Shown here: positions 1,859-64,000 of the stretch, piece by piece
Layout: the number at the start of each line of letters is the position of its first letter
Position numbering within the stretch: position 1 is the stretch's first letter
Assembly (NCBI GenBank): GCA_022072085.1
Contig: JAJVII010000014.1
Span: forward strand, 67,182 to 131,181
Origin: Phycisphaerae bacterium
GTDB taxonomy: Bacteria > Planctomycetota > Phycisphaerae > JAJVII01
Length of the DNA stretch: 64,000 bases
Direction of reading: 5' to 3'
Notes under the pieces: generated by a model
Databases searched by the model: none
What the model was told of the DNA's origin: nothing
What the model saw: only the letters and a program-made list of their open reading frames with translations
Made by a program: the position numbers and the translations under genes

Positions 1859-1865
1859 TTCAACC

Positions 1866-1965
1866 GCAGAGACGCGAAAGACGCAAAGAGATGGAGAAGA
1901 AATTGGGTTTCAGGCGGAGATCAACAGAATCCTTTCTTCTTTGCGATCTTTGCGCCTTTGCGGTG
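1866..1965 (+). repeat. Imperfect inverted repeat (hairpin) in the nuoK-nuoL intergenic region
   Basis: Left arm about 1874-1902 (gcgaaagacgcaaagagatggagaagaaa) is approximately complementary to the right arm about 1933-1962 (tttcttctttgcgatctttgcgcctttgcg), roughly 70% with bulges. GC lower than flanks. Ends about 14 nt before the nuoL RBS. Confidence 0.5.
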
Positions 1966-1986
1966 AAGTCTTCTTAGAGGAGCGAC

Positions 1987-3864: not shown

Positions 3865-3866
3865 GA

Positions 3867-3977
3867 GAACGCAGAGTGACAGAGGCGCAGAGGAAAGGCA
3901 GAGTCGGACTTGATTTGTTCTAAGAACAGGACTCCCCTCTGTGAGCCTCTGTCCCGCTCTGTCCCTCTGCGTTGTTC
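3867..3977 (+). repeat. Imperfect inverted repeat (hairpin) in the nuoL-nuoM intergenic region
   Basis: Left arm gaacgcagagtgacagaggcgcagagg... (3867-3903) against the reverse complement of 3932-3977 (gaacaacgcagagggacagagcgggacagagg...). Shares the cgcagag core with the nuoK-L element. Confidence 0.5.
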
Positions 3978-3992
3978 CGGGATTCTGAACGA

Positions 3993-18161: not shown

Positions 18162-18992
18162 TCAGGACCTGCCGCGGCGGATGCCCGCACCGGCCATGGC
18201 CAGCCCGCCCATGATCAGCATGCCGAGGGTCGCCGGCTCGGGGATCGTCGTCGTTACGTTGGACACGACCAGGAAGTTGTCGAAATTGGCCGTGGCGGCC
18301 GATCCGTTGCCGACCACCAGGCCGACGTAGGCGCTGGTGTAGTTGCCGTTGGCGACGGGGTAGTAGTTGGCCGAGTCGTCAAAGTCGATGTAGAGCGTGT
18401 CGTCCAAATAGACCTTGATGTGCCCCAGCCCGTCGTCGGAGACCTTGAGGGCGTGGTTGTGCCCGCTCGCCAGGGAATTGTTGGCAAAGGTGCTGACTGT
18501 GGCCAGCGCGTCGTCGGTCGTGTTGCCATCGCCGCGGTATGCGCTGCTGAAGTCGTCGGCGTACAGCACGAGCTGGCAGGGGTCGCTGGAGATGCCGCCG
18601 GTCTTGAAGACCACCATGTAGCCATGGGCCGGGTTTGTCATGCTGGCGGAAGTCGTGTTGTCCTTCTGGCCGAATATGATACCCATCCCGTAACCGCCGG
18701 AGCCCAAGGTCAGGGGAATCAGGTCGACCGAAATGGTGACGTTCAGCGAAATCGTCGTGTTGTTGTAGAGCGTCTTGTTAAACTTGCCGGCGCCAGCCGA
18801 AGTGACCACCTTCAGCACGCCGTCGGCCTCGTAGATGTTCGTGTCGCCAGACTGAATTGTCCATCCGGGCGGCGGGCCGCCCGTCTGGGTTGCGTCGAAC
18901 GTGTCACTGAGGATGACATCTGCTCGCGATGAAGTCGCTCCCGCAAGAACCGTCAATCCTACGACCGCCAGCAACAAGCCTAGTCTAGTCAT
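18162..18992 (-). CDS. PEP-CTERM sorting-domain protein with N-terminal lectin-like/beta-sandwich region
   Basis: C-terminus IPEPATLGMLIMGGLAMAGAGIRRGRS (PEP motif, TM helix, basic tail). Signal peptide MTRLGLLLAVVGLTVLAGATSSRA from ATG at 18992 with GGAGGAG upstream. GC noticeably lower than neighbours. Confidence 0.85.
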   Translation of the reverse strand: MTRLGLLLAVVGLTVLAGATSSRADVILSDTFDATQTGGPPPGWTIQSGDTNIYEADGVLKVVTSAGAGKFNKTLYNNTTISLNVTISVDLIPLTLGSGGYGMGIIFGQKDNTTSASMTNPAHGYMVVFKTGGISSDPCQLVLYADDFSSAYRGDGNTTDDALATVSTFANNSLASGHNHALKVSDDGLGHIKVYLDDTLYIDFDDSANYYPVANGNYTSAYVGLVVGNGSAATANFDNFLVVSNVTTTIPEPATLGMLIMGGLAMAGAGIRRGRS

Positions 18993-19095
18993 GCCATCTC
19001 CTCCGGTAACGCCAACAAGACGTATGTCACATCCCACACGCCGAGGATGTATAGCAAACGGTGTACCACAGCTAATTAGAAATAGGAAACACGCG

Positions 19096-19134
19096 TGTAA
19101 GCGCATTTATATGAATGAGTTACAATCTTGTCGA
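19096..19134 (-). promoter_or_regulatory. Sigma-70-like promoter candidate for the PEP-CTERM gene
   Basis: On the minus strand: TCGACA (-35) - 17 nt - TATAAA (-10), within an AT-rich intergenic island about 100 nt upstream of the ATG at 18992. Confidence 0.3.
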
Positions 19135-22866: not shown

Positions 22867-25065
22867 TCAGCCGCCCGGGCCGCCGGTCGGCCGGTTCCAC
22901 AGTCCGAACAGCCGCACCGACGGCGGCAGGACGAGCATGTCGGCCAGCAGGGCGCAGACGATCGTCAGGCCGCTGAGCGTGCCGAACAGCGCGACCGGCC
23001 GAAACTCCGACATGGCCAGCACGCCGAACCCGGCCGCCGCGACCAGCGAGGTGAACACCGCCGCCCGGCCGAACGTGCCGAAGCTCAGCGCTGCCGCCTC
23101 GACCGGAGGCTGGCCGCCCAGCCGATAGGTCCGGTAGCGCGCCAGGAAGTGGATCGTGTTGTCGACGGCCAGGCCGATCGCAATGCTGGCGATCATCACG
23201 GTCGCCGGGTCCAGCGGCACGCCGATCAGCGCCATCATCGAGAAGGTTCCGACGATCGGCAGCAGGTTGGGCAACACCGAGGCCGCGAACGCCCGCACCG
23301 AGCGATAGAGCACGCCGATCAGCAGGAGCACCACCGCGGTCGCCAGCGGGAAACTCCGCAACTGCGTCGCGATCAGGGCGATCTCGGCGTCCTTCATCAA
23401 CGGGCCGATGCCCGTCACCTTCCATCGCATCGACGCCCCCAGCCGCCGCCCAGCCGACTCGCTGATCCGGTCGACGACCGGGTAGAAATCCGACGCCGCC
23501 ATCGCGTTGGTCAGCACCGAGAGGCGATAGTGCTGCCCGTCGGTGTCGCGCCTCGCCAGCCGGGCCTCCATGCCGTCCAGCAGTTTGGCCAACTCGGGCG
23601 TCATGCCCGCCCCGCCCAGCCAGCCGGAGAGCTTCACCTTCGCACGCATCTTCTCCAGCCGCCCGGCGTGGTCGATGCGCACGACGTGCGGGCAGTCGGC
23701 CAGGTCGGACTCGACGCGGTCCAGCGCCGCGAGCGTTGCCGCTGCGTCCTCCGGCGGGCAGCCGACGTCCAGTTCGACGGTGTAGAACCCGGTCAGCCGC
23801 TCGCCGATGAAGCGGTAGTCCTTGACGACGCGAGAATTCTTCGGGAAGTACGCCAGCACATTGGACTCGCCGCGCAGCCGCAGGGCCATGACCGTGCTGA
23901 ACGCCAGCACCGCCAAGGCCGCGATGGTCACCGGCCAGGGCCGCCGGGCGACGAACGCCGCCACCGGCGCGCTCCAATGCTGCCGCACGCGGCGGCGCTT
24001 CGACTTCGACGGGCGCACCTGCCCTAGCAGCCCGGGCACGATCAGCAGGTCGCACACACAGCCGATGCAGATCCCGATCGCCGCGAACAGTCCCGTCTCC
24101 TGCACCGGGCTCATGTGCGAGATCAGCAGCGAGCCGAACCCGACGGCCGTCGTGACGCTGGTCAGCGTCGCCGGCGCCAGCAGCGTGCGATAGGTGTGCC
24201 GCAGTGAACGCTCGCGGCCCATGCCCCGGCGCATCGACGCCTGGTATTCCAGTGCCAGGTGGATGCCGTTGGACAGGGCCATCACGAAAAGCAGCGTCGG
24301 CAGCGCCGCAGTGATCATGTTGATCGTCCGCCCGCTGAGCACCAGGATGCCCATCGTCCAGAGCACCGTCACCCCGACCGCCGCCATGACGACGGCCATC
24401 CCGCGGAAGCTGCGCAGGCAGAGCAGCAGCGTCCCGGCCGCCAGGGCGCCGGCGATCAACAGGAACTCCGTAAGTGCTGAGATGGCTGCCCGGTTCAGTC
24501 TGGCCGTCATGACCGGCAGGCCGGCCAGGTGATACTCCTGCTGTTTGCCGCAGACCTCGGCCAGCGCCGATTCGATCTGGCCGACCACGCGCTGCCGCCG
24601 CCCCGGGTCGGCGAACTTCGGCAGCCGCACCACCAGCCCGACCGCGTGCCCGCCGGGCCCCAGCAGGTAGCCGCGCAGGAACTCGTCGGTCCGCAGGGCC
24701 TCTCGCCCGGCGGGTCCCAGCTTGGCCGTCGCGATGATCCGCGGCACGGAGAGCACGTCGTCCACGCCGTCGATCGCCGCCAGCCGGTCGGCCAGCTTCT
24801 GCTGAAACACCAGCGCGTCAGCCGACAGCGGGTCTTCCATCGGCAGGCCGATGACGACGAACTCCTCGCTCCCGTAGCGGGCCAGGAACTGCCGGTATTG
24901 CGCGTAATCCTCGCCGGTTCGGTCGAGCCAGACTTCGATGGAGTTGTCGATGTGCGTGGACGGCAGCAGCAGGGCGGGGATGACGGCGCTGCACAGGCAG
25001 AGGATCGCCAGCAGCCGGCAGTGTCGCGACAGGAACTCAACCACGCGATTCATCGGCGCTGACAC
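22867..25065 (-). CDS. MMPL/RND-superfamily (SSD-containing) membrane exporter
   Basis: 732 aa with two 5-6 TM bundles separated by soluble domains (...AALPTLLFVMALSNGIHLALEY... and ...IASIAIGLAVDNTIHFLARY...), typical of MMPL/HpnN-type lipid exporters. Starts 22 bp after the PKS stop on the same strand. Confidence 0.75.
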   Translation of the reverse strand: MSAPMNRVVEFLSRHCRLLAILCLCSAVIPALLLPSTHIDNSIEVWLDRTGEDYAQYRQFLARYGSEEFVVIGLPMEDPLSADALVFQQKLADRLAAIDGVDDVLSVPRIIATAKLGPAGREALRTDEFLRGYLLGPGGHAVGLVVRLPKFADPGRRQRVVGQIESALAEVCGKQQEYHLAGLPVMTARLNRAAISALTEFLLIAGALAAGTLLLCLRSFRGMAVVMAAVGVTVLWTMGILVLSGRTINMITAALPTLLFVMALSNGIHLALEYQASMRRGMGRERSLRHTYRTLLAPATLTSVTTAVGFGSLLISHMSPVQETGLFAAIGICIGCVCDLLIVPGLLGQVRPSKSKRRRVRQHWSAPVAAFVARRPWPVTIAALAVLAFSTVMALRLRGESNVLAYFPKNSRVVKDYRFIGERLTGFYTVELDVGCPPEDAAATLAALDRVESDLADCPHVVRIDHAGRLEKMRAKVKLSGWLGGAGMTPELAKLLDGMEARLARRDTDGQHYRLSVLTNAMAASDFYPVVDRISESAGRRLGASMRWKVTGIGPLMKDAEIALIATQLRSFPLATAVVLLLIGVLYRSVRAFAASVLPNLLPIVGTFSMMALIGVPLDPATVMIASIAIGLAVDNTIHFLARYRTYRLGGQPPVEAAALSFGTFGRAAVFTSLVAAAGFGVLAMSEFRPVALFGTLSGLTIVCALLADMLVLPPSVRLFGLWNRPTGGPGG

Positions 25066-25087: not shown

Positions 25088-28000
25088 CTACCTCAGGCCG
25101 ACCGTTTCGAAAGCCGCCGTGATCCCCGCTGCCAGGGCCGTCACGTGCGGCGGGCGCAGCAGGGTGAAGTGCCCGCCCGGCAGCGTCGCGACGCGGACCG
25201 CAGCCGACGACGCGTCCGACCATTCGCCGTCGCGGTCGCCGCCGCCGCCGGCCAACGGGTCGGCCGCCCGCCACTGAAACACCGGGGCTGCCAGCCGGAT
25301 CACGCCGGGCGAGGCCGCCAGGTCGCCGTGATGCTCCAGCAGTTCCAGCCGCCGGCTCATCAGGTCGGCCGGCATGCCCGCCGGCAGCATCCTGCGGTCG
25401 GTGTACCACTGCACGAGCCTCGCGGCCCGCTCGGCCCGCGGGTGCGAACGCAACGACTCATCCAACTCAACGACCTCGCGCACCGCCTGCGCGGTCATGC
25501 TGTTGTCCGCACTTCCGGCGTTAAGCAGGTCGGCGATCGCGTCGGCCGAGTTGCGGGCGATACCCTCGCGCAGCGCCGCGCTGGGGCGGCTGGTGTCGAT
25601 CAGGCCGACGAAGCCTACCGCCCGCCCGCTCCGCTCCAGCGCCTGGGCCACCTTGATCGCGAAGACCCCGCCGATCGACCAGCCGGTCAGGCAGCAGGGG
25701 CTCGCCGGCTGCATCGCGCGGATGCGGGCGGCGTAGTCGTCGGCCAGCGCGTCCAGCGTCGCGTGCTCGATGTCCGTGCGGCCGCCGTCGGGCGCCCGGC
25801 AGTCGATGCCGTAGACCGTCCGCCCGGGCGTCAGGGCGTCGGCCAGGGCGCGGTAGACCGCCACCCCGCCGCCGCCGGCGTGGATGCAGAACAGCGGCGT
25901 CCGCTCGCCGTGGGACCGCAACGTCACGACGGCGGGCGAATCGGCTGCGGCCGGGGCGGCGGCGGACCGCTCGGTGGCTGCCGACTCCGGCGACAGTCGG
26001 CCCAGGATCAGCCGCGAGAGCTGTGACACGCTCGGCCCGCTCATCACCTCCATCGTCTGAAGGTGCACGCCCAGGCTGCTCTCGATCCAGTTGCCCAGCT
26101 CCACGGCCATCAGCGAGTCCAGCCCCAGGTCGGTCAGCGAGCGGTCGATGTCGAGCTGCTCGGCGGACTGGCCGAGCACGCCGGCGATCTGCGTCCGCAT
26201 CGCCGCCAGCAGCAGCGCGGGGCGATCGGCCTGGTCGGCCGCAAGTACCGCACGGCGGAGTTCTTCCGACTCGCCCGAGGTAGCCGGTCCGCTGTCGGAG
26301 TCGGCTGGGCAGACGAACTCGAACTTGGTCGCCCCGAGGCCCTTCTCGCGCATCCGGGCGCCGTATCTAGCCCAGTCCATGTTGCAGACGGTCAAGTGGG
26401 TCGCGTCGGCGGACATGCAGCGGCCCAGCGTGTCCAATGCCTGCGTCGGGGTGAAACCGGCCAGACCGAATGACTTGAACCGCTCGGCCACTTCCGGCGC
26501 CGCGGCGACTGTGCCGACCTCGGCGAGATAGCCCCAGTTGATCGACAGGCCGGGCAGTCCGCGGGCCCGGCGACGGGCGGCCAGCGAATCGAGCACCGCG
26601 TTGGCTGTGGTGTAGTTGGCCTGGCCGGCTGTCCCGACCACAGTCGAGATCGACGAGAAGAGCACGAAGTGGTCGAGCCGCCGGTCGGCCGTCATGCGGT
26701 GCAGCAGCATCGCACCGACGACCTTGGGGCGATAGACCTTGAGGAACGTCGCCTCGTCCAGGTCTGCCATCAGAGTGTCGTCGAGCACCATAGCCGCGTG
26801 GAACACGCCGCGCAGCGTCGCGCCCGGCGCCTCGGCCGCCGCCAGGGCGCGGGCCACGTCGTCGGGCTTTGTCACGTCGCCGAGGACCTCGACGACGGTT
26901 GCGCCGCGGGCGCGCATGGCCTCGATCTGATCGCGCGACCGCCGGTCCGGCGGGCCCTTGCGCCCCATCAGCACGACGTGCCGCGTGCCGCGCTCGACCA
27001 GCCAGCCGGCCAGCAGCAGCCCGAACCCGCCGAACCCGCCGGTGACCACGCAGGCGTCGCCCGGGGCCAACTGCGGGTGCGACTGCGATCCGACGACGGC
27101 GTTCAGCCGGTGGTCGCGCAGCGTCAGCACGAGCTTGCCGATGTGGCTGCCCCGGCTCAGGGTGGCCAGCGCTGCCGAGGCGGAGGCCATCGTCATCGGG
27201 CGATAGGGCAGCGGGCGGTAATCGCCGGCGGCGATGCGGTCGGCGACGGCGGCGTTGAGCCGGCGCACCAGGTCGGCCCGCGTCCGCATCGCCAAGTCCA
27301 GGTCGATCGAGAATACCGCGATGTTCTTGCGGAACGGGGCCAGGCCGATCGGCCGGTCGGCGTAGATGTCACGCTTGCCGATCTCGACGAATCGGCCGAA
27401 CGGGGCGAGCACCGCCAGCCCCTTGGCGATGGCTTCGCCCGCGAGGCTGTTGAGCACGACGTCGACGCCCGTGCCGCAGGTGGCGTCCATCACGTCGGCC
27501 GCCCAGCCGAGCGTGCGCGAGTCCAGCACGTGCCGCACGCCCAGGCGGCGGAGGAACTCACGCTTCTCCGGCGTGCCGGCGGTCGCGAGGACCTCCGCGC
27601 CTACGGAGCGGGCGATCTGCACCGCCGCCAGGCCGACGCCGCCGGCGGCCGAGTGAATCAGCACCTTCTCGCCGCGGCCGAGGCCGGCCTTGTCGATCAG
27701 CGCGTGATGGGCGGTCATGAAGGTGACCGGCATCGTTGCGGCGGCGACCATGGCGATGTCGTCGGGCGCGGGCATCAGGGCGTGCGCGGGCAGCAGGACG
27801 TGCGTTGCGAAGCAGCCCGGCCCAGCCGCCATGACGCGGTCGCCGACGCGCACGCCCGCGACCTGCGGGCCGACGCGGCGGACGACGCCCGCGCATTCGA
27901 TGCCCAGGCCCAGCTCGCCCGGCGCCAGGCCCGGGTAGATGCCCAGCACCTTCATCACGTCGGAGAAGTTGATGCCGGCGGCGTGGACCTCGACCTCGAC

Positions 28001-31000
28001 CTGGCCGACGCCCGGCGCCGGTCGCAGCCGCTCGTGGATACGGACGTTGGCGAACTCGCCGGTGCGCGACATGCCGACAGCAGCGGCCCGCGGCGGGTCG
28101 GGGTCGGCGGACGGGAACGGCCGAGTCAGCGCAGCCCGCACCAGCCGGTGGGCGAACCGTTGGCCGCCACGGACGGCGACCTCTTCGTTGTCGTCGCCGT
28201 CAGCCAGTTCGCGGGCCAGAACGTCCGCGTCGTCGTCGGCTGCGGGATCCAGGTCGATGATCGCAGGTCGGTAGTTGGGGAACTCGTTGGCCAGCGTGCG
28301 GGCCAGGCCCCACAGCCCGGCCTGGAGGGGTGCGGTCGGCTCCGCCGGTCCGGTCACCGGCTGGGCGCCGCGGGTCGCCAGCCACAGCCGCGGAGCCTGC
28401 TGGCGGGCGGAAAGTTCGCGGGCCAGATCGCAGAGGGCGACGCCGGTAGCCCGAGCCGCGTCATCGACGTCGGCCGGCGCGGCGTCATCGGGATCGGGCA
28501 GGTCGAGGGCCCAGAGATGCACGACGCCGCGCAGCGGCGCCTGCGGATCGGCGGCGGCAGCCTCGATCGCGCGGGCGATGCCGTCGCAGTTGGCGCCGTC
28601 GGCACGCCGGAGCAGCGTGCAGGTGTCGCTCTGCGCCGTCAGCCGCGACGCCAGCGCCTCGGCTGTGCCGCCGGCGTCGGCGAGGATCAGCCAACTGCCG
28701 GACGTGGCTGCGTCGGTCTCGGCGGGCGCAGCTGCGGGCTCATCCGGCGCAGCCGCCTGCGGCGGTGCGCTCGGCCCGCGGGCCAGCAGCACCACGCCGT
28801 CCAGCATCGCGTCGCTGCTGTGCGGCGGGACGTACTCGTGGATGTCGGTGAAGCCCTGTTCCCCCAGCAGCGTCCGCCAGCGGTCCAGCGGCAGGGTCAC
28901 GTGGGCAGGCCGCAGGTCTCGGTCGCGGAACCGCCACCAGCCGTCGAGCATGCCGAAGACAAGATCCGTCCAGCGGAGCGGGGCGGTGAGTTCCGTGAAA
29001 ACGATCACGCCGCCGGGGGCCAGCACCCGCCGGACGTTGGCCAGCGTCGCGCGGAGGTCCGCGGTGGCGTGCAGCACCAGCGGCGCCATCACCACGTCGA
29101 AGCCGCCGGGCGCGAACCCCTGGCTGATCGGGTCGGATTCGATGTCCAGCGTCTGGTAGCGGACGAAGGGGTAGCCGCGGAACCGCTGCTCGGCGTGCGG
29201 GAGGAAATGCCGCGACACGTCGGTGAAGACATAGTCGACCGGGCAGTGCCGGGCGGCCTCGGCGACCGCGGGCAGCACGTAGGCCGTCGTTCCGCCGGTG
29301 CCCGCGCCGATCTCCAGCATCCGCACCGTCCGCCGCGGCGGGGCCGCCCAGAGGATGCGCGCTACCAGGTCCTGGATCAGCAGGTTGCACTGCCGCATGC
29401 CCGGCGAATCCTGGTAGAGCCCCTCGGCGGCTGCGGTGTCGCCGCCGGGGAAGAGCAACTCCAGCGGATCGACTCGGCCGACCAGCACGCCGGCCAGGTT
29501 CCGCCCGCAGCGGTCGATCAGACGCAGGCGGGCCGCGGCGGCCGGGTGGTCGGCGACCAGGGCGCGCCAAACGGCGTCCACGTTGCAGGGCGGTTTCATG
29601 TCCGCCGGCGCGACGCGGCCGTCCGCGCCGAGCGCGACGATGCCCTCGGCTGCCGCGATCTCCAGCAGCCGTCGCCAGAGCTTCGCGTGCCCGTCGGTCA
29701 CCCCCAGCCGCTGCCGCAGCGACTCGATCTCCGCCGGTCCGTCGGCCAAGGCGTCGGCAAACCGCAGGTCGGCCAGCGCGTTTGCGATGTAGCCGGCGCA
29801 CAGCCCGTCAACCTCCGGCATCTCCGGGTCGAAGGGCGTCGCGTTCCACGTCGCCCGCCCGCCCGCGGCGATGTCGGTCAGTCCGCCCAGGCCCGCCAGC
29901 GCCGGCGGCGTCGGATCGCCCGGCAGCGGCGCGGGGAACCAGCGGAACTCGAACAGCAGGTCCTCGACCGTCGTCCCGCGGCTCTCGCCCGCGGGCGCGA
30001 CGGACCGGCAGCGCAGGCCGCGGATTTCCACCAGCCGTCGACCGCCGTCGTCGAGCACCGCCAGCGACGCGGTCAGTTCCTCCGCGCGACGGGCGACGTC
30101 GTACACGTGGCACCAGAGCGGCCGACCATCCAGCGGACCGGTGACGCTCATGCGATCGACGGCCACGGGCAGGTAGCAGGCGCCGGCTTCAGCGGCCGAT
30201 TGGCTGGGCGTCGCGCCAAGGACGGCCTGAAGGCAGGCGTCCAGGATCGCGGGGTGAACGTGGAACGCGCCGGCTGCTGCCGCTGCGGCGATGGGCGGCG
30301 ACGGGACGATGCGGGCCAGCGCCTCGCCGGGCCCGCTGAACAGCCGCTCGATGCCGCGGAACGCCGGGCCGTATTCCAGCCCCTGCTCAGCCAGCCGGGC
30401 GTAGCACTCGTCCGGGCCGATCTCGACAGTGCAGCGGGCGCGAATCGCCGCCAGCTCCGCCTGGCCGGACGCGTCGGCCTCAGCGCTCGCGGCGGGCAGT
30501 CCGGGCAGCGCCTTTCCGTCGGCGTGCAGTTGCCAGGGGTCGCCGCCGCTCTCGGCGCTCGATCGGCCGAACACGCGGAACGTCAGGCCCACCGGATCGA
30601 AGGTGGTGCATACGCTGCGGCCGGTTGCGCCGGGGAACATCGCGCGGTGGAACTGAACGTTCTCGACGACCACGCCCGTGCCGGCGTTGGGCTGCTGGGC
30701 CCGCACCGCGGCCGCCAACTCGAGGTAGGCCGCCGCGGGGAAGACCACCTGGCCCTGCACGCGGTGGTCAGTGAGGAAACCCGTCGCTTCACCGGCGGCT
30801 TCGATCGTCTGCTCCCACGCGGGCAGGGGCAGGCCCATCGGACAGCCGAGCAGGGGGTGGGCTTCGCCGTCGCGGGTCAGCACGCGCAGGCTGCCGGGGC
30901 TCTGGAACCAGTGCCGCGCCCGGTCCCACGGGTGCAGCGGCAGCGGTACCCGGTCGGGCCCGCGGCCGAGCAGGCCCGTCCAATCCAGCGCGACGCCGGC

Positions 31001-33622
31001 GGTGAACAGCCGGCCGGCCGACTCGCGGATGGTCGCGGCCTCCGGCTGGCCCCGCCGCAGCGACGGGACGATCACCGGGCCCGAGCCGTTGCCGTCGCCG
31101 CCGGGGACGCTGCCGGCGATGGCGCCGGCCAGCACCGGATGCGGGCCGATCTCGACGAAGACGCCGCAGCCGTCGTCGGCCATCCGTCGGATTGCCCCGG
31201 CGAACAGCACCGCCTGGCGGACGTTGCGCCACCAGTAGTCGGCGTCGAGGCAGCCGTCCTGCGTGCGGCCCTCATCGACGGTCGAGTAGAAAGGCGTGTG
31301 GCCGTCGGCCTGCCGGATGTCGCCCAGCGACGCCAGCAGCTCGTCGCGCATGCCGTCCATGTGGTCGCTGTGGAACGCGTACTGCACCCGCAGCGGGCGG
31401 CAGAATACTCCGTCGCCGTCCAGCTTCGCCCGCACGGCGTCGACCGCGTCGGCGTCGCCGGTGAGGGTGAGCATCTGCGGCGCGTTGAACGCGCCGATGA
31501 CCACGCGGCCGCGGTGCGGGGCGAGGTATCGCCGGGCCGACGGCTCGTCCAGTCCGACAGCCAGCATCCGCCCGCCGGCGGTGCGGGCGAAGTCCATGCA
31601 GCGTCCGCGGTGGAAGATCACGCGCAGCCCGTCGTCCAGGCTCAGGCGGCCGGCGACGCAGGCGGCCGCTACCTCGCCGGCGCTGTGGCCGACGCAGGCG
31701 TCGGGCGTCACGCCCCACGAATTCCATAGCGCCGCCAGCGCGACCTGGAGCGCGAACAGCACCGGCTGGGCGATCGAGGTCGAGGCCATCCGCGAGTCGG
31801 CTTCGTCGCGAGCGGCCAGTTCCTCAAGCAGCGACCAGGAGGAATGGGCGCTCATCCGCCGGTCGCAGTCGTGGATCACGTCGCGGAAGACGGGCTCAGC
31901 CGCAAGCAGCTCGCGGCCCATCGCCCACCACTGCGGGCCCTGGCCGCTGAAGACGAAGGCGATCCGCCGCCCGTCGCCCTCAATGCCCCTGCCGACGTGC
32001 AGGCCTGGCGCTTTGCCGGCGGTCCCGTAGTCGGCCAGCCGGCGGGCCAGGTCGCTCATCGAGTCGGCGACGACGGCCAGGCGATGGGGCAGGGCGGATC
32101 GCGACCGGGCCGCCGACCGGCAGAGGTCGGCCAGCGGCAGGTCGGCCCACGCGTCGGACGCGGCGCGGCGGGCGTAGCGATCGGCCAGCATCTCCAGCGA
32201 CTTTGGACTGCCGGCGGAAAGGCAGAGCAACTGAGGGGTTGCGTCCCGGCCGCTAGCGGCCGGGCCTGGATGAACAGCGTCGTCCGCGGAACTCAATAGC
32301 AGGTGGGCGTTGGTGCCGCCGAAGCCGAAGGAGTTCACGGCGGCCAGCACGCGGCCGTCCGGCGGCAGCGGCGTCGGGCGGGTCGGCACGCGGATACGCA
32401 GCTCGTCAAAGGGGATATCCGGGTGTGGGCTGTTGAAGTGCAGGCTGGGCGGGATCGTCCGATGGTGAACCGTCAGCGCCGCCTTGATCAGTCCGGCGAT
32501 GCCGGACGCGCTCTCGAGGTGGCCGATGTTCGTCTTGACCGAGCCGAGGTAGAGCGGCCGATCGGGCGAGCGCCCCTCGCGCAGCGCCGCGCCCAGCGCC
32601 TTGACCTCGATGGGATCGCCCAGCGACGTGCCCGTGCCGTGGGCCTCGAAGTAGGCGACGTCGGCCGGGGCGATCCCGGCGTCGGCGAGGACGCGGCGGA
32701 TCAGTTCCTCCTGGGCGGCGCCGCTGGGGGCGGTGATGCCGGGCGTGCGGCCGTCCTGGTTGACTCCGCCGGCCAGAATGACCGCGTAGATGCGGTCGCC
32801 GTCGCGGCGGGCGTCGGCCAGCCGCTTGAGCAGCACCATGCCCGCGCCTTCGCCGCGGCCGAAGCCGTCAGCCGACGCGTCGAACGACTTGCACCGCCCG
32901 TCAGGGCTGAGCATGCCCAGCCGGCAGAAGCCGATGTAGGGCTCAGGGCTGAGGATGAGGTTCACGCCGCCGGCCAGGGCCGCGTCGCACCGGCCGTCGC
33001 GGAGGCTGCGGCAGGCGAGGTCGGCCGCCACCAGCGCCGACGAGCAGGCGGTGTCGACTGCGACGCTGGGCCCGCCGAGGTTCAGGGCATGCGAGACGCG
33101 GTTGGCGACGATGCTGGTTGCGGTGCCGGTTCCCGAGTGGGCGTCGATGAGGTCGGACTCGGCCATGGTTGCCTGGGTCTTGGCGTAGTCGACGTTGGAG
33201 ACGCCGGCGAAGACGCCGACGGCGCTGCGGCGGCGGCGGTCGACGGGCAGGCCCGCGTCCTCCATCGCCTCCCAGCAGACCTCCAGCAGCAGCCGCTGTT
33301 GGGGGTCCATGCGTTCGGCTTCGCGGGCGGAGATGCCGAAGAAGGCCGCATCGAACCGGTCGACGTTCTCGACGAAGCCGCCGTTGCGGGTGTAGATCCG
33401 CCCGGGCTGCCTGGGGTCTGGATGGAAGAAGCGGTCGAGATCCCACCGCCCGGGGGGGATCGGCCCGATCGCGTCCACGCCGTCGTGCAGCAGACGCCAG
33501 AAGGCGTCGGCGTCGTCGGCGCGCCCGGGGAACCGGCAGCCGATCCCGACGATGGCGATCGGCTCGGGGGTCCGGAGCGCGGGCGCGTCGTGTGGGGCCG
33601 GCGACGAAGCGAATGTGGGCAT
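25088..33622 (-). CDS. Type I polyketide synthase, single highly reducing module: KS-AT-DH-cMT-ER-KR-ACP-TE
   Basis: 2844 aa. KS (DTACSSALVAADLACRSL, HGTGT), AT (GQGPQWWAMG, GHSAGEVAAACVAG), DH (HRVQGQVVFPAA), SAM methyltransferase (LEIGAGTGGTT), ER (IHSAAGGVGLAAVQIARSVGAEV), KR (VVTGGFGGFGLLLAGWLVERG), ACP (LGLDSLMAVELGNWI), thioesterase (GWSIGGVFAIKVAQAL). Confidence 0.9.
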   Translation of the reverse strand: MPTFASSPAPHDAPALRTPEPIAIVGIGCRFPGRADDADAFWRLLHDGVDAIGPIPPGRWDLDRFFHPDPRQPGRIYTRNGGFVENVDRFDAAFFGISAREAERMDPQQRLLLEVCWEAMEDAGLPVDRRRRSAVGVFAGVSNVDYAKTQATMAESDLIDAHSGTGTATSIVANRVSHALNLGGPSVAVDTACSSALVAADLACRSLRDGRCDAALAGGVNLILSPEPYIGFCRLGMLSPDGRCKSFDASADGFGRGEGAGMVLLKRLADARRDGDRIYAVILAGGVNQDGRTPGITAPSGAAQEELIRRVLADAGIAPADVAYFEAHGTGTSLGDPIEVKALGAALREGRSPDRPLYLGSVKTNIGHLESASGIAGLIKAALTVHHRTIPPSLHFNSPHPDIPFDELRIRVPTRPTPLPPDGRVLAAVNSFGFGGTNAHLLLSSADDAVHPGPAASGRDATPQLLCLSAGSPKSLEMLADRYARRAASDAWADLPLADLCRSAARSRSALPHRLAVVADSMSDLARRLADYGTAGKAPGLHVGRGIEGDGRRIAFVFSGQGPQWWAMGRELLAAEPVFRDVIHDCDRRMSAHSSWSLLEELAARDEADSRMASTSIAQPVLFALQVALAALWNSWGVTPDACVGHSAGEVAAACVAGRLSLDDGLRVIFHRGRCMDFARTAGGRMLAVGLDEPSARRYLAPHRGRVVIGAFNAPQMLTLTGDADAVDAVRAKLDGDGVFCRPLRVQYAFHSDHMDGMRDELLASLGDIRQADGHTPFYSTVDEGRTQDGCLDADYWWRNVRQAVLFAGAIRRMADDGCGVFVEIGPHPVLAGAIAGSVPGGDGNGSGPVIVPSLRRGQPEAATIRESAGRLFTAGVALDWTGLLGRGPDRVPLPLHPWDRARHWFQSPGSLRVLTRDGEAHPLLGCPMGLPLPAWEQTIEAAGEATGFLTDHRVQGQVVFPAAAYLELAAAVRAQQPNAGTGVVVENVQFHRAMFPGATGRSVCTTFDPVGLTFRVFGRSSAESGGDPWQLHADGKALPGLPAASAEADASGQAELAAIRARCTVEIGPDECYARLAEQGLEYGPAFRGIERLFSGPGEALARIVPSPPIAAAAAAGAFHVHPAILDACLQAVLGATPSQSAAEAGACYLPVAVDRMSVTGPLDGRPLWCHVYDVARRAEELTASLAVLDDGGRRLVEIRGLRCRSVAPAGESRGTTVEDLLFEFRWFPAPLPGDPTPPALAGLGGLTDIAAGGRATWNATPFDPEMPEVDGLCAGYIANALADLRFADALADGPAEIESLRQRLGVTDGHAKLWRRLLEIAAAEGIVALGADGRVAPADMKPPCNVDAVWRALVADHPAAAARLRLIDRCGRNLAGVLVGRVDPLELLFPGGDTAAAEGLYQDSPGMRQCNLLIQDLVARILWAAPPRRTVRMLEIGAGTGGTTAYVLPAVAEAARHCPVDYVFTDVSRHFLPHAEQRFRGYPFVRYQTLDIESDPISQGFAPGGFDVVMAPLVLHATADLRATLANVRRVLAPGGVIVFTELTAPLRWTDLVFGMLDGWWRFRDRDLRPAHVTLPLDRWRTLLGEQGFTDIHEYVPPHSSDAMLDGVVLLARGPSAPPQAAAPDEPAAAPAETDAATSGSWLILADAGGTAEALASRLTAQSDTCTLLRRADGANCDGIARAIEAAAADPQAPLRGVVHLWALDLPDPDDAAPADVDDAARATGVALCDLARELSARQQAPRLWLATRGAQPVTGPAEPTAPLQAGLWGLARTLANEFPNYRPAIIDLDPAADDDADVLARELADGDDNEEVAVRGGQRFAHRLVRAALTRPFPSADPDPPRAAAVGMSRTGEFANVRIHERLRPAPGVGQVEVEVHAAGINFSDVMKVLGIYPGLAPGELGLGIECAGVVRRVGPQVAGVRVGDRVMAAGPGCFATHVLLPAHALMPAPDDIAMVAAATMPVTFMTAHHALIDKAGLGRGEKVLIHSAAGGVGLAAVQIARSVGAEVLATAGTPEKREFLRRLGVRHVLDSRTLGWAADVMDATCGTGVDVVLNSLAGEAIAKGLAVLAPFGRFVEIGKRDIYADRPIGLAPFRKNIAVFSIDLDLAMRTRADLVRRLNAAVADRIAAGDYRPLPYRPMTMASASAALATLSRGSHIGKLVLTLRDHRLNAVVGSQSHPQLAPGDACVVTGGFGGFGLLLAGWLVERGTRHVVLMGRKGPPDRRSRDQIEAMRARGATVVEVLGDVTKPDDVARALAAAEAPGATLRGVFHAAMVLDDTLMADLDEATFLKVYRPKVVGAMLLHRMTADRRLDHFVLFSSISTVVGTAGQANYTTANAVLDSLAARRRARGLPGLSINWGYLAEVGTVAAAPEVAERFKSFGLAGFTPTQALDTLGRCMSADATHLTVCNMDWARYGARMREKGLGATKFEFVCPADSDSGPATSGESEELRRAVLAADQADRPALLLAAMRTQIAGVLGQSAEQLDIDRSLTDLGLDSLMAVELGNWIESSLGVHLQTMEVMSGPSVSQLSRLILGRLSPESAATERSAAAPAAADSPAVVTLRSHGERTPLFCIHAGGGGVAVYRALADALTPGRTVYGIDCRAPDGGRTDIEHATLDALADDYAARIRAMQPASPCCLTGWSIGGVFAIKVAQALERSGRAVGFVGLIDTSRPSAALREGIARNSADAIADLLNAGSADNSMTAQAVREVVELDESLRSHPRAERAARLVQWYTDRRMLPAGMPADLMSRRLELLEHHGDLAASPGVIRLAAPVFQWRAADPLAGGGGDRDGEWSDASSAAVRVATLPGGHFTLLRPPHVTALAAGITAAFETVGLR

Positions 33623-57416: not shown

Positions 57417-59525
57417 ATGAGCAAGAAAGCCAGTCCCGCCCGCAAGGGCAAGTCCAAGTCAAAGTCGCCGCGCAAGGCTCTGCAAGCCGAGTCGGCCCCG
57501 CCGCCCAAGCCGCCCGCGCCGCCGCGCGCCCGCAAGTCGGCTGCCCCCGAGACAGCCGAGTCGATGGCTGTCCAACAGAAGGAGATCGCGGTCAGCGAGT
57601 TCTTCGCCAAGAACCGCCACCTGCTCGGGTTCGACAACCCGCGCAAGGCCCTGCTGACCTGCGTGAAGGAGGCCGTCGACAACTCGCTGGACGCCTGCGA
57701 GGAGGGCGGCATCCTGCCGGAAATCTGGGTCATCATCGAGCCGGCCAACGGCAACGGGTCGGCCGCCGGCGGCGAGGCGAAGAAGACCGCCGACGCCCCG
57801 CTGACCGGCCTGGCGTCGGGCAAGGGCGGGGCGAAGGAGGAGACCCAGCCCTCGCTGCTGGAGACCGTGCATCCCGAGATCGCCCAGTCGGTCTCGACCT
57901 CGCTGGCGAACGTCACGCGCTTCCGCGTCACTGTCCGCGACAACGGGCCGGGCATCGTCAAGGCGCAGATCCCCAACATCTTCGGCCGACTGCTCTACGG
58001 TTCCAAGTTCCACCGGCTGCGGATGAGCCGCGGGCAGCAGGGCATCGGCATCTCGGCGGCCGGCATGTACGGCCTGCTCACAACCGGCCAGTCTGTCGAG
58101 ATCATCTCGCGCACGGGCCGCAAGAAGCCGGCCCACCGCTTCGAGCTTCAGATGGACACGCGGAAGAACCGCGCCGAGATCATCAAGGACCAGGAGTTGG
58201 CGAACTGGCCGAGGTTTACCGTCAGTGATGCCGACGCCGCGCCGGCTGAGCCCGAGGAAGTCGAACACGGCACCGAGGTGCGGATCGTGCTGGAGGCCCG
58301 GTTCCAGCGCGGCCGTGCGTCCGTGGACGAATACATGGAGCAGACCGCGATCGCCAACCCGCACGCGGAGATTCACTACATCGCCCCCGATGGCGCCCGG
58401 CGGGATTTCCCGCGCGAGGTGAACGAGGTCCCCGCCAGCCCGGCGGCGATCAAGCCGCACCCCTACGGCGTCGAACTGGGCGTTCTGATCCGCATGCTCA
58501 AGGAAACGAAGCACAAGCACCTGGGCGGGTTCCTCCAGAAGGAGTTCTCGCGCGTCTCGCTCAAGGTCGCCCAGGAAATCTGCGCCAAGGCCGGCCTGAC
58601 CACGCTGACCTGGTGCTCGCAGGTCGTCCGCGACCAGGCCGACCGGCTGCACGCGGCCATCCAAGGGACGAAGATCATGGCCCCGCCGACCAACTGCCTG
58701 GTGCCGATCGGACCGCAGCAGATCCTCAAGGGGCTGCTCAAAGAGATCAAGGCCGAGTTCTGCTGCGCCGCGACGCGCGACCCGGCCGTCTATCGCGGCA
58801 ACCCGTTCCAGATCGAGGTCGGCCTGGCCTACGGCGGGCAACTCCCCGCCGACGACAGCGCCCGCGTGATCCGCTTCGCCAACCGCGTGCCGCTCCTCTA
58901 TCAGCCATCGGCCTGCGCGATCACCAAGAGCGTCGTGGACGTAGGCTGGCGGAACTACGCCCTCAGCCAGCCGCGCAACAGCGGGCCCGAGGGGCCGCTG
59001 GTCATCTTCGTTCACATGGCCAGCGTCTGGGTTCCGTTCACCAGCGAGTCCAAGGAGGCCGTCGCCGGATACGACGAGATCGCCAGGGAGATCAAGCTGG
59101 CGCTCCAGGAGTGCGGCCGCAAGCTCAGCCTCTACATACGCCGACGCCAGCACGCCGCCCGCGAGGGCCAGCGGCGGCACGTTTTCGAGCGGTACATCGG
59201 CGAGGTCGTCAACGCCTGCGGCAAGATGATCCGTGTCAACCGCAAGCAGCTCTACGCCGAACTCCAGGCCGTCGCCAAACGCCGCACCGCCAAGGCCGAC
59301 GAGCGGTTCGACGAGAACGGCAACCCGATCCGCCCCGGCCGCGACGAGTTGGCTGCCGATGCGAACGTCGTGGTAATCGAGTCCAACGCTCCCGAGGCCG
59401 ACGCCGATGCCGTCGTGCCGGCAGCCGTCCCCGACGCCGACAAGCCCAAGGCCGGCCGAAAGGGCGCAGCCGCGAAGAAGTCCCGCGCCGCCCGGGGCCT
59501 GTTCGACGAGAACGAGGGCCAATGA
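57417..59525 (+). CDS. top6B: DNA topoisomerase VI subunit B (GHKL/Bergerat ATPase) with Lys-rich SPKK-like N- and C-terminal tails
   Basis: Bergerat-fold N-box FFAKNRHLLGFDNPRKALLTCVKEAVDNSLDACEE, G-rich lid VRDNGPGIV...GQQGIGISAAGMYG, transducer region. N-tail MSKKASPARKGKSKSKSPRKA...; C-tail ...DKPKAGRKGAAAKKSRAARG. Upstream TTGGCG-N17-TAGAAT. Confidence 0.85.
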   Translation: MSKKASPARKGKSKSKSPRKALQAESAPPPKPPAPPRARKSAAPETAESMAVQQKEIAVSEFFAKNRHLLGFDNPRKALLTCVKEAVDNSLDACEEGGILPEIWVIIEPANGNGSAAGGEAKKTADAPLTGLASGKGGAKEETQPSLLETVHPEIAQSVSTSLANVTRFRVTVRDNGPGIVKAQIPNIFGRLLYGSKFHRLRMSRGQQGIGISAAGMYGLLTTGQSVEIISRTGRKKPAHRFELQMDTRKNRAEIIKDQELANWPRFTVSDADAAPAEPEEVEHGTEVRIVLEARFQRGRASVDEYMEQTAIANPHAEIHYIAPDGARRDFPREVNEVPASPAAIKPHPYGVELGVLIRMLKETKHKHLGGFLQKEFSRVSLKVAQEICAKAGLTTLTWCSQVVRDQADRLHAAIQGTKIMAPPTNCLVPIGPQQILKGLLKEIKAEFCCAATRDPAVYRGNPFQIEVGLAYGGQLPADDSARVIRFANRVPLLYQPSACAITKSVVDVGWRNYALSQPRNSGPEGPLVIFVHMASVWVPFTSESKEAVAGYDEIAREIKLALQECGRKLSLYIRRRQHAAREGQRRHVFERYIGEVVNACGKMIRVNRKQLYAELQAVAKRRTAKADERFDENGNPIRPGRDELAADANVVVIESNAPEADADAVVPAAVPDADKPKAGRKGAAAKKSRAARGLFDENEGQ

Positions 59526-59662: not shown

Positions 59663-60772
59663 ATGGCCAAGCAGACTCGCAAGCGACACGCCGCGACGGG
59701 CAAGAAACTCCAGGGGCTGGCCCAATCCGTCGTCAAGGCCGCCCACGCCAAGCGCGACCCGGGCATCGTCATCCCCACGCGGGCCCTGTCCAACTCGGTC
59801 TACGACGCCAAGCGCAAGATCATCACGATGGGCAAGGGCAGCCAGACGCGGACCTTCTTCAACTTGGGCATGGCCCGCAAGTTCATGCAGACGATGCTCA
59901 TCGCCTCCGGCTGCAAGGAACTCAACGACCAGGGCAAGACAACCAGTATCCGCGACCTGTTCTACCACTGCAAGCACACCATCGAGGGCACGCGCGAGAA
60001 CACATTCGACGAGCAGTCCGAGAGCGACCCGATCATCGAGGACCTCGAAGTCGCCATCGGCAGCCTGCGCGAGGAACTGGGCCTGTTCGCCGAGAACAAG
60101 GGCTCGATGGTCGGGCCGATGACCATCGTCGACGCCGGCGACACGATCGACCTTCGGCGGATGGGCAGCGGCGGCTGGTCCGTGCCGTCGATCGTTGAAT
60201 CCGACGTCATCCAGTTCCGCAAGCACGAAGCCCGGTACGTCCTGCTGATCGAGAAGGCCGCCATCTGGAAACGGTTCAACGAGGACCGCTTCTGGGACAA
60301 GCACAAGTGCGTCATCCTGCACGGCGGAGGCCAGCCGCCGCGCGGCGTCCGCCGCCTGCTCTTCCGCCTGCACAACGAACTCAAGCTGCCGGTCTACGTC
60401 CTGACCGACAACGACCCCTGGGGCTACTACATCTACAGCGTCGTCAAGCAGGGCTCGATCAACCTGGCGTTCGAGAGCGAGCGGATGGCCGTCCCGCGGG
60501 CACGGTTCGTCGGCATGAGCAGCTTCGACGTCGGGCGATTCGACATCGACTCCAGCGTGACGATCGCCCTGAAGGACGAGGACCGCAACCGGGCCCGCGA
60601 GATATTGAAATACCCCTGGTTCGCCGACAAGCGGGAGTGGAAGCGCGAGATCGAACAGATGCTCAAGACCGGCGTGAAGCTGGAACTGGAAGCCCTCTCC
60701 AGCAAGGACTTCTCCTTCATCACCCAGACCTACCTGCCGCGCAAGCTCAAGGACAAGCAGTGGCTGGACTGA
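59663..60772 (+). CDS. top6A: DNA topoisomerase VI subunit A (Spo11/Top6A-like: winged-helix + Toprim)
   Basis: Candidate catalytic Tyr in IRDLFYHCKH. Toprim acidic residues (VLLIEKAAIW; YVLTDNDPWGYYIY, the DxD motif). 369 aa. 138 bp downstream of top6B on the same strand. Confidence 0.85.
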   Translation: MAKQTRKRHAATGKKLQGLAQSVVKAAHAKRDPGIVIPTRALSNSVYDAKRKIITMGKGSQTRTFFNLGMARKFMQTMLIASGCKELNDQGKTTSIRDLFYHCKHTIEGTRENTFDEQSESDPIIEDLEVAIGSLREELGLFAENKGSMVGPMTIVDAGDTIDLRRMGSGGWSVPSIVESDVIQFRKHEARYVLLIEKAAIWKRFNEDRFWDKHKCVILHGGGQPPRGVRRLLFRLHNELKLPVYVLTDNDPWGYYIYSVVKQGSINLAFESERMAVPRARFVGMSSFDVGRFDIDSSVTIALKDEDRNRAREILKYPWFADKREWKREIEQMLKTGVKLELEALSSKDFSFITQTYLPRKLKDKQWLD

Positions 60773-60878
60773 CCGGCCGCCGCCTCCGCCGGCCTCGCTG
60801 CTCATTGACGGCGGGGCGGACGCGGATTATCATTCATCCCCCAGACCGGTCGTTGTCGGACTCCTGGCGCTGCCCAAC

Positions 60879-61997
60879 ATGACCTTACTGCGTCGCAGTC
60901 TGATCGGCGCTATCGCACTGACCGGGCTGGTCGTTCTTGCCCCGCCAGCCCGGCCTGCGTCGGGTGATCCCGTTCCCGCAACCGCCCCCGACGTTGCCCC
61001 GCCGCTGCCGGCTCCGATGCCGTCGGCCACCACCCAGCCGGCCAGCACCGCGGACCTCGAAGCCGAGATTCAGTCGATCCTCGTCCGCGTCAGCCTGCTG
61101 GAAAACGACAAGTCGCTCCAGCCGCGCACCCGCAAGGTCCTCACCGACCGCTACCAGCAGGCCGTCGAGCAACTCCGCCACGCGGTGGACATGACCCTTC
61201 AGGCCGGCGGCTATCGCCGCGTCGCCATCTCCGCCCCGCGGCTGCTCAAGGCATTGCAGGCCGAGCTGGCCTGCCCGACGCCGCGGCCGGATGCGGTCGC
61301 AGCCGAAGGGCTGACCTCCACGCAGTTGTCGGCGCGGTGGGATCTGGCCAAGGCCGACCTGACCACCCGCCAGAAGCAGATCGAGGAACTGGACACGGAG
61401 ATGAAGGACCGCGAGACGCGGCGGGTTGCCATCCCTCCGCAGATCGCCGACCTCACCCAGCGGCTCCAGGACGTCCGCCGCGAGTTGACCAGTCTGCCCA
61501 GCGACAGCCAGTCAGTCTACATCCCGCCGCGACAGTCGCTGCTGTCGGCCCAGGTGCGGGCCCTGTCGGCCGAGATCAACGCGTTGCAGCGCGAGCTGGC
61601 CAGCTACGAGGCGACCGACGAACTGCTGGCCGCCCGGCGCGACCTTGCCGTCCGACAGGTCGCCAACGCCGAGCGCGAGGAGGCCCTCTGGGCCGCCCAG
61701 GTCCGCGCCCAGGACGCCCGCGAAGCCGAGGATTTCAGCCGCCGGATGCAGGCCCAGTTCAAGGAGTTGGCCGCCGCCTACCCGGCCGTCCGCGAACTGG
61801 CCGAGCACAACGCCGAACTCGCCGCCCGCCGCATCGGGCCCGATGGTCTGCTGGCCAGCCTGGCCGACGCCGGGCACGAGTTGGCCGGCCTCCAGAAGAA
61901 GCTCACTCGCCTCCAGGAGGACTTCGAGCGCGTGCGGGCCGACATCACCGCCGGCGGCCTGCACGACGCGATGGGCCAGATGCTGCTGGCGCAGTAG
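60879..61997 (+). CDS. MscK/KefA-like mechanosensitive channel, N-terminal periplasmic coiled-coil portion ending at an in-frame TAG
   Basis: Signal peptide MTLLRRSLIGAIALTGLVVLAPPA followed by long coiled-coil heptads. TAG at 61995-61997. The same frame continues open directly downstream into the TM and MscS domains. Confidence 0.7.
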   Translation: MTLLRRSLIGAIALTGLVVLAPPARPASGDPVPATAPDVAPPLPAPMPSATTQPASTADLEAEIQSILVRVSLLENDKSLQPRTRKVLTDRYQQAVEQLRHAVDMTLQAGGYRRVAISAPRLLKALQAELACPTPRPDAVAAEGLTSTQLSARWDLAKADLTTRQKQIEELDTEMKDRETRRVAIPPQIADLTQRLQDVRRELTSLPSDSQSVYIPPRQSLLSAQVRALSAEINALQRELASYEATDELLAARRDLAVRQVANAEREEALWAAQVRAQDAREAEDFSRRMQAQFKELAAAYPAVRELAEHNAELAARRIGPDGLLASLADAGHELAGLQKKLTRLQEDFERVRADITAGGLHDAMGQMLLAQ

Positions 61998-64000
61998 GCG
62001 GCCATCGACGAACTCCGCGACGGACTGGGCGACCCGGTCGCGCTTCAGTCCCGGGCCGCCGCCGCGCAGGGCCGGTTGCTGGACTACCGCCGCGACCTGG
62101 ACACCCTGGCCAACCCCTTCGACCGCGCCGGCGAGATGATCGAATCGCTTTCGCCCGCCCCCGATGACGCCGACCGCCCGCGCATCCGCTCGCAGATCGA
62201 GTCGCTGTTGATCGCCCGCCGCGAGGTCCTCCGCCACCTCGTCGACGAGACCCGGCGATACCTGGCCGCCACGACCGCGCTGATTGCGACCGGCCGCGAT
62301 CTGGCCGCCGCCATCGACCGCTTCAGCGTCTTCATCGACCAGCGCATCCTGTGGGTCCGCAACATGCCGCCGCTTCGCCGCGGCGAGCTGCTGTGGGCGG
62401 CGCGCGGCGCAGCCGAGCTGGTTCGAGCCGATGGCTGGCGGCGGTTGCCGGGCCAACTGGCCTACGACGCCGTCGAGAGCCCGCTGATCTGGCTGCCTCT
62501 GCTGCTGCTGGCCGCCGCCATGATCGCCACGCGCGGCCGCGCCCGGCGCGGCATCCGCAGTCTTGGCCGACCCGGCCCGCGCGACGCCGCCGGACTGACG
62601 ACGATGGCCGCGGCGCCTCGCGTGCTGGCCCTCACGCTCTGGCGAGATCTGCCCGGGCCGCTGTTGCTGGCGCTGGCCGGCTGGCGGCTGGGCGAGATCG
62701 CCGCCGGCCGCGGACCGGCCGCCTCGCTTGGCGCCGCCCTGTGGACCTGCGCTTGGGTCCTGCTCGGCCTGCTGTTCCTGCACGACCTCTGTGTGCCGGG
62801 CGGGCTGGGCCGGCGACATTTCCGGTGGAACCGCCGTCGCCTGGCCTCGATCCGCGCCGGCAGCGTCTGGTTGATGGCCGTCGGCCTGCCGCTGCTGGCG
62901 CTGGTGCTGGTCATGCGGTTCTCCGGTTTCGCAGGACGGCAGGTTGCCATGCCGCAGGCGTCGCTGGCCCGTCTGGCCTTCATCGTCGGCGCCCTGTTCC
63001 TGGCCGTCATGCTCCACCGCCTCTTCCGGGCCGACGAGCGCGGCGGACTGCTTTCCCGCTCGCGGGCCGGTCGGCTGCGGTTGCTCTGGCATGTGCTGGC
63101 CGTCGCCGCCCCTCCGGCCCTGGCGCTGCTGTCGGCCTGCGGATACCTCCACACCAGCCTGAAGTTGGCCGGCCTGCTGCTGGCCTCGCTCGGCCTGCTG
63201 CTGGGCGTCGCGGTGGCCCAGGGCATCCTGACGCACTGGTTGACGTTGATGCGGGCCCGGCTGTCGGCCGACCGTTCGCTCCAGCCGGTCACGCCGATCG
63301 CTCCCGCCACCGTCGTCGCCCTGGAGGAGGCGGACCGCGAAGCCCTCCGCGTCCTGGGCGACCAGGGCAGCCACCTCATCCGCGCGGTGCTGGTCGTCAT
63401 CTTCCTGGTGGGCCTGTGGCTGATCTGGCGCTCCGCCCTGCCGGCGCTGTCGATGCTCAACCGCTTCACGCTCTGGACCGTCAGCGGGCCCGACGGGGCG
63501 GTCCCGGTCACGCTGGCCAAGGGTCTGCTCTCGCTGCTGACGGTGGCGGCCATGGTCGTCGCCATCCGCAACGTCCCAGGCCTGCTGGAGATCGTCCTGC
63601 TCCGCCCGGTCGGCCTGGGTCCGGACATCCGCTTCGCCGTCCGCGCCCTCTGCCGCTACCTGCTGGCCATCGTCGCCCTGATCATCGCCTTTTCGCTGCT
63701 GGGCATCGGCTGGTCCAAGGTGCAGTGGCTGGTCGCGGCGATCACGGTCGGCCTGGGCTTCGGCCTCCAGGAGATATTCGCCAACTTTGTCTCGGGCATC
63801 ATCGTGCTGTTCGAGCGCCCGATGCGCGTCGGCGACGTGATCACCGTCGGCGACACGACCGGCCGCGTCACCCGCATCCAGATGCGCTCGACCACCATCA
63901 CCGACTGGGACTGCAAGGAGCTGATCGTCCCCAACAAGGAGTTCATCACCGGGCGGCTGGTGAACTGGACGCTCTCGGACCGTACGCTGCGGATTACGAT
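61998..64000 (+). CDS. MscS-family channel portion (TM region plus MscS beta-domain), same frame as the upstream fragment; 3' end outside window; start undefined
   Basis: Same reading frame as 60879-61997 with no stop to the window end. Multiple TM helices, then MscS signature ...ITVGLGFGLQEIFANFVSGIIVLFERPMRVGDVITVGDTTGRVTRIQMRSTTITDWD. First in-frame ATG after the TAG is at 62136. Confidence 0.7.

Follow-up and report, generated by a model that had tools for sequence, protein, structure and literature searches.

An in-frame TAG codon interrupts an MscK/MscM-type mechanosensitive channel gene in a Phycisphaerae bacterium

A 64,000-nucleotide stretch of contig JAJVII010000014.1 from a Phycisphaerae metagenome-assembled genome (MAG; GCA_022072085.1, positions 67,182 to 131,181 of the forward strand), here called the window, contains at its right-hand end a gene for a large mechanosensitive channel of the MscS family, related to MscK and MscM of Escherichia coli, whose reading frame is interrupted by a single in-frame TAG. 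The stop probably represents a genuine loss-of-function allele that arose recently in the sampled population by a C-to-T transition at position 61995. The interruption is already visible in GenBank as two separate open reading frames (ORFs), and no new mechanism is involved; the locus is an ordinary broken gene or a base-call error.

Translation of 60879-64000 on the plus strand from the ATG at 60879 gives 372 codons, one stop, and then 667 stop-free codons, in agreement with an earlier reading of the window made by a model from the letters and their ORFs (the sequence-only reading), which had described a frame starting at 60879, closed by TAG at 61995-61997 and open from there to the window edge. 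The stop is codon 373 in the local context GCG CAG TAG GCG, and the frame after it comprises codons 374-1040. A further 118 codons, taken from protein P0001, lead from the window edge to a normal C-terminus, and the protein joined across the TAG, with P0001 supplying the part past the window, is 1158 aa long. The window has a G+C content (GC) of 70%, and its true genes are marked by a GC at third codon positions (GC3) of 0.83-0.96 and by a higher GC at first than at second positions (GC1 > GC2). Both halves of the interrupted gene show this coding-type pattern (GC3 of 0.85 before the TAG and 0.92 after it, with GC1 > GC2 in each), and the continuity of the frame is therefore not that of a chance open frame. 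ORFs on the opposite strand across the locus, such as 61512-63374 on the minus strand, were rejected as shadow frames, having the inverted pattern (GC1 < GC2).

The identification of an MscK-like channel gene cut by an amber codon was borne out by Pfam matches on both sides of the stop, by Protein Data Bank (PDB) alignments that run across it, and by the structural match of an AlphaFold2 model. Before the TAG, a hydrophobic signal-like segment (aa 3-24) and an MscS_porin domain (PF12795; aa 74-305, 61098-61793, E = 8.7e-25) correspond to the signal peptide and periplasmic part recognized in the sequence-only reading. After it, the multiple-transmembrane region and MscS domain that had been described there were recovered as MscS_TM (PF12794; 62481-63476, E = 4.7e-50, spanning the full profile from 1 to 339), MS_channel_1st (63654-63770), and MS_channel_2nd (63774-63971, E = 2.3e-23). 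The MscS core, with its pore helices, beta domain, and C-terminal domain, is complete on P0001 (PF21088, PF00924, and PF21082) and is also covered by alignments to MscS, and about 11 transmembrane helices or hydrophobic segments are predicted. The best PDB sequence matches were E. coli MscM (11sm, E = 2e-90) and MscK (7uw5, E = 3e-86), in alignments that extend from query residue 56-74 to 1133 and cross the TAG; when the periplasmic part was compared with the PDB by itself, no match was returned. The AlphaFold2 model, computed from a 10-sequence alignment, has a mean predicted local distance difference test score of 76 (mostly 83-93 in the periplasmic part), and its best PDB matches are 7uw5 and 7ux1. 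It contains three long helices (82-131, 147-204, and 217-297) that coincide with the MscS_porin match, then a second set of helices (302-490), and from about residue 502 an amphipathic or transmembrane region. These results support the assignment of the gene to the MscK/MscM type of large MscS-family channels, with about 1158 codons and two predicted periplasmic helical bundles. Members of this type are heptameric channels gated by tension (and, for MscK, dependent on K+), with all domains on one uninterrupted polypeptide of about 1100-1250 aa; the homologues are continuous, whereas the frame here is broken at codon 373.

The closest relatives have glutamine where the window gene has its stop. 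Word-index protein searches, together with scans of GTDB genomes and JGI metagenomes for sequence patterns, returned relatives of at most about 35% identity, the source ORFs, and one closer protein, P0014; relatives at 45-48% identity were recovered by an exhaustive HMMER search with the N-terminal fragment as the query. Protein P0015, of 1148 aa, shares 48% identity with the window protein across 1144 aligned residues, aligns almost to its C-terminus, and has Q at the site. P0014 (PHU85_11585, a partial protein from the Phycisphaerae MAG GCA_028706835.1) is 45-47% identical and continuous through the site. The local motif reads AMGRVL[LI]RQQ in these two proteins and AMGQMLLAQ* in the window gene, and on the P0014 contig (L013) the codon at the site is CAG (CGG CAG CAG ACG, compared with GCG CAG TAG GCG in the window). 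Glutamine is encoded in the window gene 38 times by CAG and twice by CAA. Because the relatives have glutamine at this position, encoded by CAG in P0014, the TAG is a single C-to-T transition away from the inferred ancestral codon. The sequence-only reading had proposed a comparison with orthologs in which two separate genes would be looked for at this position; the relatives have one gene, and neither P0014 nor P0015 is split at the TAG position, each being a single ORF across it. Gene order is not shared with the P0014 contig, where KdpD/response regulator and a lipase are found in place of the topoisomerase VI B and A genes of the window, and orthology is therefore assigned on sequence alone.

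More distant homologues are about 25-35% identical. Those of full length have 1115-1360 aa and are uninterrupted, except for one from a Competibacter MAG. Where their match spans the site, it is read through in nine of nine proteins and eight of nine loci. When the 150 top-ranking homologues of the N-terminal part were sorted by length, 123 had at least 955 aa and 27 had fewer than 900, with lengths scattered from 326 to 851 aa, which suggests contig-end fragments and occasional broken copies and does not indicate a recurrent split at one point. The Competibacter exception (L003, 9779-11644 of the nanopore-derived Candidatus Competibacter MAG contig JBAOII010000035.1) loses its frame after 621 aa, although its tblastn match covers query residues 64-1039; a frameshift probably accounts for this further broken copy.

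The periplasmic domain of MscM is built from two bundles, of which PB1 is distal and PB2 membrane-proximal (PMC13503660). By PDB residue numbering, the ΔPB1 form of MscM has 212 residues fewer than the wild type, all of them N-terminal to MscM residue 363, and this difference fits the 216 residues over which the three long helices of the AlphaFold2 model extend. Because of this fit, together with the secondary-structure pattern of the model, residue 373 probably lies inside PB2, in the break between two short helices (363-371 and 375-382). The model thus agrees with the earlier placement of the TAG inside the periplasmic domain and puts it within a helical bundle. The TAG codon aligns with MscM residue 324, in the motif GEALRAQVARLPEM, and falls within a conserved pattern, G-x-x-L-[LR]-x-x-X-x-x-L-P, in which the site itself is variable among distant homologues (R, K, L, Q, W, or V).

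Under the nonsense allele that we favor, a C-to-T transition would have converted Gln373 (CAG) to TAG in one ancestral channel gene. Termination at codon 373 would release a 372-aa periplasmic fragment, and the channel part would be made, if at all, only by inefficient reinitiation at the TTG at 62076 or the ATG at 62136. A protein started at either codon would have neither the signal peptide nor PB1, would be short of the initial third of the membrane-proximal bundle, and would have to move an N-terminal tail of 119-139 residues carrying 18-21 lysines and arginines across the membrane. We infer that the T at 61995 is present in the organism and was not introduced by a consensus error, and that the allele is either null or a strong hypomorph. 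Extra stops, frameshifts, and faster divergence were looked for in both halves, and none was seen. Identity to two outgroup loci (L001 and L002) is 27-31% before the TAG for the window gene versus 25-30% for P0014 and P0015, and 22-25% versus 20-27% after it. Since there is no extra divergence, frameshift, or stop, the lesion is young, or the base change is not in the organism. Several points weigh against a real null allele. The base rests on one assembly consensus, which may be wrong here or may represent a minority allele picked up during assembly, and the lack of further decay would fit an artefact or two still-functional halves equally well. In addition, gating persists in E. coli MscK and MscM from which the periplasmic domain has been removed (PMC9653487, PMC13503660), although MscM without both bundles gives few channels and a much lower sensitivity (PMC13503660); a reinitiated product might therefore keep some function.

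The sequence-only reading had left four explanations standing side by side, namely a nonsense mutation, a sequencing error, readthrough, and a genuine split. The continuity of the relatives, with Gln/CAG at the site, strengthens the first two and narrows the choice at the expense of the others. It is unlikely, though far from negligible, that the true genome reads CAG and encodes an intact 1158-aa channel, the T at 61995 being a consensus error (for example, of the deamination type, C to T) or a minority variant. The source MAG has one occurrence in the protein collection, from a single contig, so that the base is seen in one assembly, and the TAG is a single transition away from the codon of P0014. 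Both halves are otherwise pristine, with no excess of divergence, and other metagenome-derived homologues also look broken (L003 after 621 aa, and P0045 and P0136 with frameshift-like tails). The consensus of the window itself gives a different picture, since no frameshift or internal stop was found among the other 25 genes of the 64 kb; they are intact, which argues for an accurate consensus that is not generally error-prone. Stop-creating substitution errors in a polished consensus are also rarer than genuine nonsense pseudogenes in bacterial genomes.

Quite improbable is a functional arrangement in two pieces, in which the 372-aa fragment would be exported on its own and a channel of YbiO size (about 740-760 aa), with altered gating, would be made by reinitiation at TTG 62076 or ATG 62136. 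Start codons are at hand, with an in-frame TTG 27 codons and an ATG 47 codons beyond the TAG; the latter distance, to codon 420, is close to the roughly 45 codons to the first downstream ATG given in the sequence-only reading, and the TTG at codon 400 comes earlier. A Shine-Dalgarno sequence is absent at both, but it is also absent at the authentic ATG at 60879 and is thus uninformative. The coding-type composition of both halves would be compatible with two products, as would the behavior of E. coli channels, in which MscM lacking PB1 is like the wild type and tension still opens constructs from which the entire periplasmic domain is missing (PMC13503660, PMC9653487). However, no split occurs there in either of the two closest relatives or in any full-length homologue, and the scatter of short-homologue lengths over 326-851 aa is typical of contig-end fragments. 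The TAG does not mark a domain boundary but lies within the membrane-proximal bundle, between the helices 363-371 and 375-382. The downstream product would have no signal peptide and would carry the long basic N-terminal tail described above, and no promoter-like site was found between the TAG and the downstream starts in a scan of 60500-62600. The genuine split entertained in the sequence-only reading is disfavored on these grounds; nothing indicates that an arrangement in two pieces is under selection, and some residual function is conceivable.

TAG is a normal terminator in the window, and recoding is unsupported. It terminates 9 of the 25 other confidently coding frames, whose domain architecture is complete at those ends; they include the genes for a polyketide synthase (PKS), with a thioesterase match reaching residue 2834 of 2844, an ankyrin lipoprotein, an OmpA-family protein, a SAM_MT protein, and a GntR/LacI-type regulator. 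All six frames were screened for pairs of long same-frame segments divided by a single stop, and most pairs with high GC3 were antisense shadow frames. The only other TAG-separated pair of true genes in the same frame, at 53079, was rejected as a case of recoding because it consists of two separate genes, spaced 34 codons apart, each with a signal peptide of its own. A pair divided by TGA at 13146 was rejected as readthrough on the same basis (separate genes, a spacer, and a signal peptide for each). The upstream member of this pair (7948-13143, plus strand) encodes a 1732-aa protein whose sole Pfam match is Secretin_N, and the downstream member (13192-15222, plus strand), in the same frame past the TGA and a short spacer, encodes a 677-aa signal-peptide protein with no Pfam match. 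No tRNA gene and no match to an Rfam family was found in the 64-kb window, and the 120 nt examined around and after the TAG show no special RNA fold (z = -0.10 versus shuffles).

Basal readthrough of UAG occurs in bacteria, and the frame is intact past the TAG, but nothing specific points to a full-length protein made by such low-level readthrough, by a suppressor tRNA, or by pyrrolysine, and with TAG in ordinary terminating use, Gln/CAG rather than TAG in the relatives, and neither a tRNA nor an unusual RNA structure, the readthrough option of the sequence-only reading is very hard to sustain. Equally implausible is a TAG that is both real and maintained, whether to yield a free periplasmic coiled-coil protein together with a reinitiated short channel lacking a signal peptide, or to tune channel dosage by low-level readthrough. 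Were this true, the locus would show an MscK/MscM channel split or attenuated in nature, with altered tension sensitivity, and a real and maintained split would inform how much periplasmic domain such channels need.

In GenBank, the downstream ORF is MCG3178730.1 ([quoted passage not shown]), with 759 aa and a TTG start, on a contig of 183,896 bp, and the upstream ORF is the hypothetical protein BIFFINMI_01058 (P0013), with 326 aa and a start at Met47 (61017). The ATG at 60879 is probably the better start for the latter, because it adds the hydrophobic signal-like segment, because the N-termini of P0014 and P0015 align from about residue 11-12, and because the sole sigma-70-like match in 60500-62600 lies upstream of it; this was the single promoter-like site in the scanned region, where 0.1 were expected from shuffles. 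The Met47 start drops a signal-like N-terminus (60879-61016) that is conserved in the relatives and is probably a miscall. The two records are best treated as two pieces of one mscK/mscM-type gene, to be flagged as a pseudogene or checked against the reads. As one more nonsense-interrupted gene in a MAG, the locus matters little beyond this. Its features are collected in Table 1.

Table 1. Features of the interrupted channel gene, in window coordinates
Feature	Position	Strand	Basis
Codons 1-372: signal-like segment, periplasmic helical domain, and first helices of the membrane-proximal bundle	60879..61994	+	Translation, Pfam, hydrophobicity, AlphaFold2
Premature in-frame TAG, codon 373; CAG (Gln) in relative P0014	61995..61997	+	
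Codons 374-1040: remaining periplasmic bundle, MscS_TM, and MscS core	61998..64000, continuing past the window edge	+	
TTG, codon 400; GenBank start of the 759-aa "MscM" ORF	62076..62078	+	
ATG, codon 420; first in-frame ATG past the TAG, possible reinitiation site	62136..62138	+	
Sigma-70-like promoter match, TTGACG-17 nt-TATCAT, 46 nt upstream of ATG 60879	60805..60833	+	Consensus match only

Immediately upstream of the channel gene lie the genes for topoisomerase VI subunit B (57417-59522, plus strand; Topo-VIb_trans and HATPase_c) and, between it and the channel gene, subunit A (59663-60769, plus strand; TP6A_N and Toprim). Topoisomerase VI occurs mainly in archaea and eukaryotes, and few bacteria have it. 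Elsewhere in the window, 25091-33622 on the minus strand encodes a fully reducing type I PKS in one polypeptide of 2844 aa (KS-AT-DH-MT-ER-KR-ACP-TE), which lies directly upstream of, and on the same strand as, an MMPL-family transporter gene (22870-25065, minus strand); the two may form a lipid or polyketide export pair. The product of a lower-GC stretch (0.63) at 18162-19106 on the minus strand is a 314-aa protein whose C-terminus is PEP-CTERM-like (…IPEPATLGMLIMGGLAMAGAGIRRGRS). Complex I genes (a nuoI-like 4Fe-4S gene, nuoK, nuoL, nuoM, and nuoN), all apparently intact, occupy 47-7492 on the plus strand, at the left end of the window.

The window gene shares with E. coli MscM (YjeP; 11SM and 11SQ) and MscK (KefA; 7UW5 and 7UX1) the MscS_porin, MscS_TM, and MscS core domains, in an end-to-end alignment, along with a signal-like segment at the N-terminus, long helices that form a periplasmic domain of about 500 aa, and about 11 hydrophobic segments. 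It differs from them in its interruption at codon 373 and in its low sequence identity. P0015 and P0014, at 45-48% identity, are collinear with it over their whole length and have the same N-terminal signal region and local motif; they are single ORFs with glutamine at the site. Engineered truncations offer a further comparison. In MscM, deletion of PB1 had no measurable effect, and deletion of both bundles (ΔPB1+2) left few channels with a much higher gating pressure, near that of MscL, and less hysteresis (PMC13503660); MscK constructs without the periplasmic domain still responded to tension (PMC9653487). A reinitiated downstream product of the window gene would likewise be a partial periplasmic truncation, like ΔPB1 and ΔPB1+2 MscM (11SO and 11SR). 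The constant offset of 212 in residue numbering from MscM residue 363 on suggests that those constructs were shortened internally and retain the N-terminus. In contrast, the natural lesion, as mapped here, would remove the signal peptide together with PB1 and the beginning of PB2, leaving a broken bundle.

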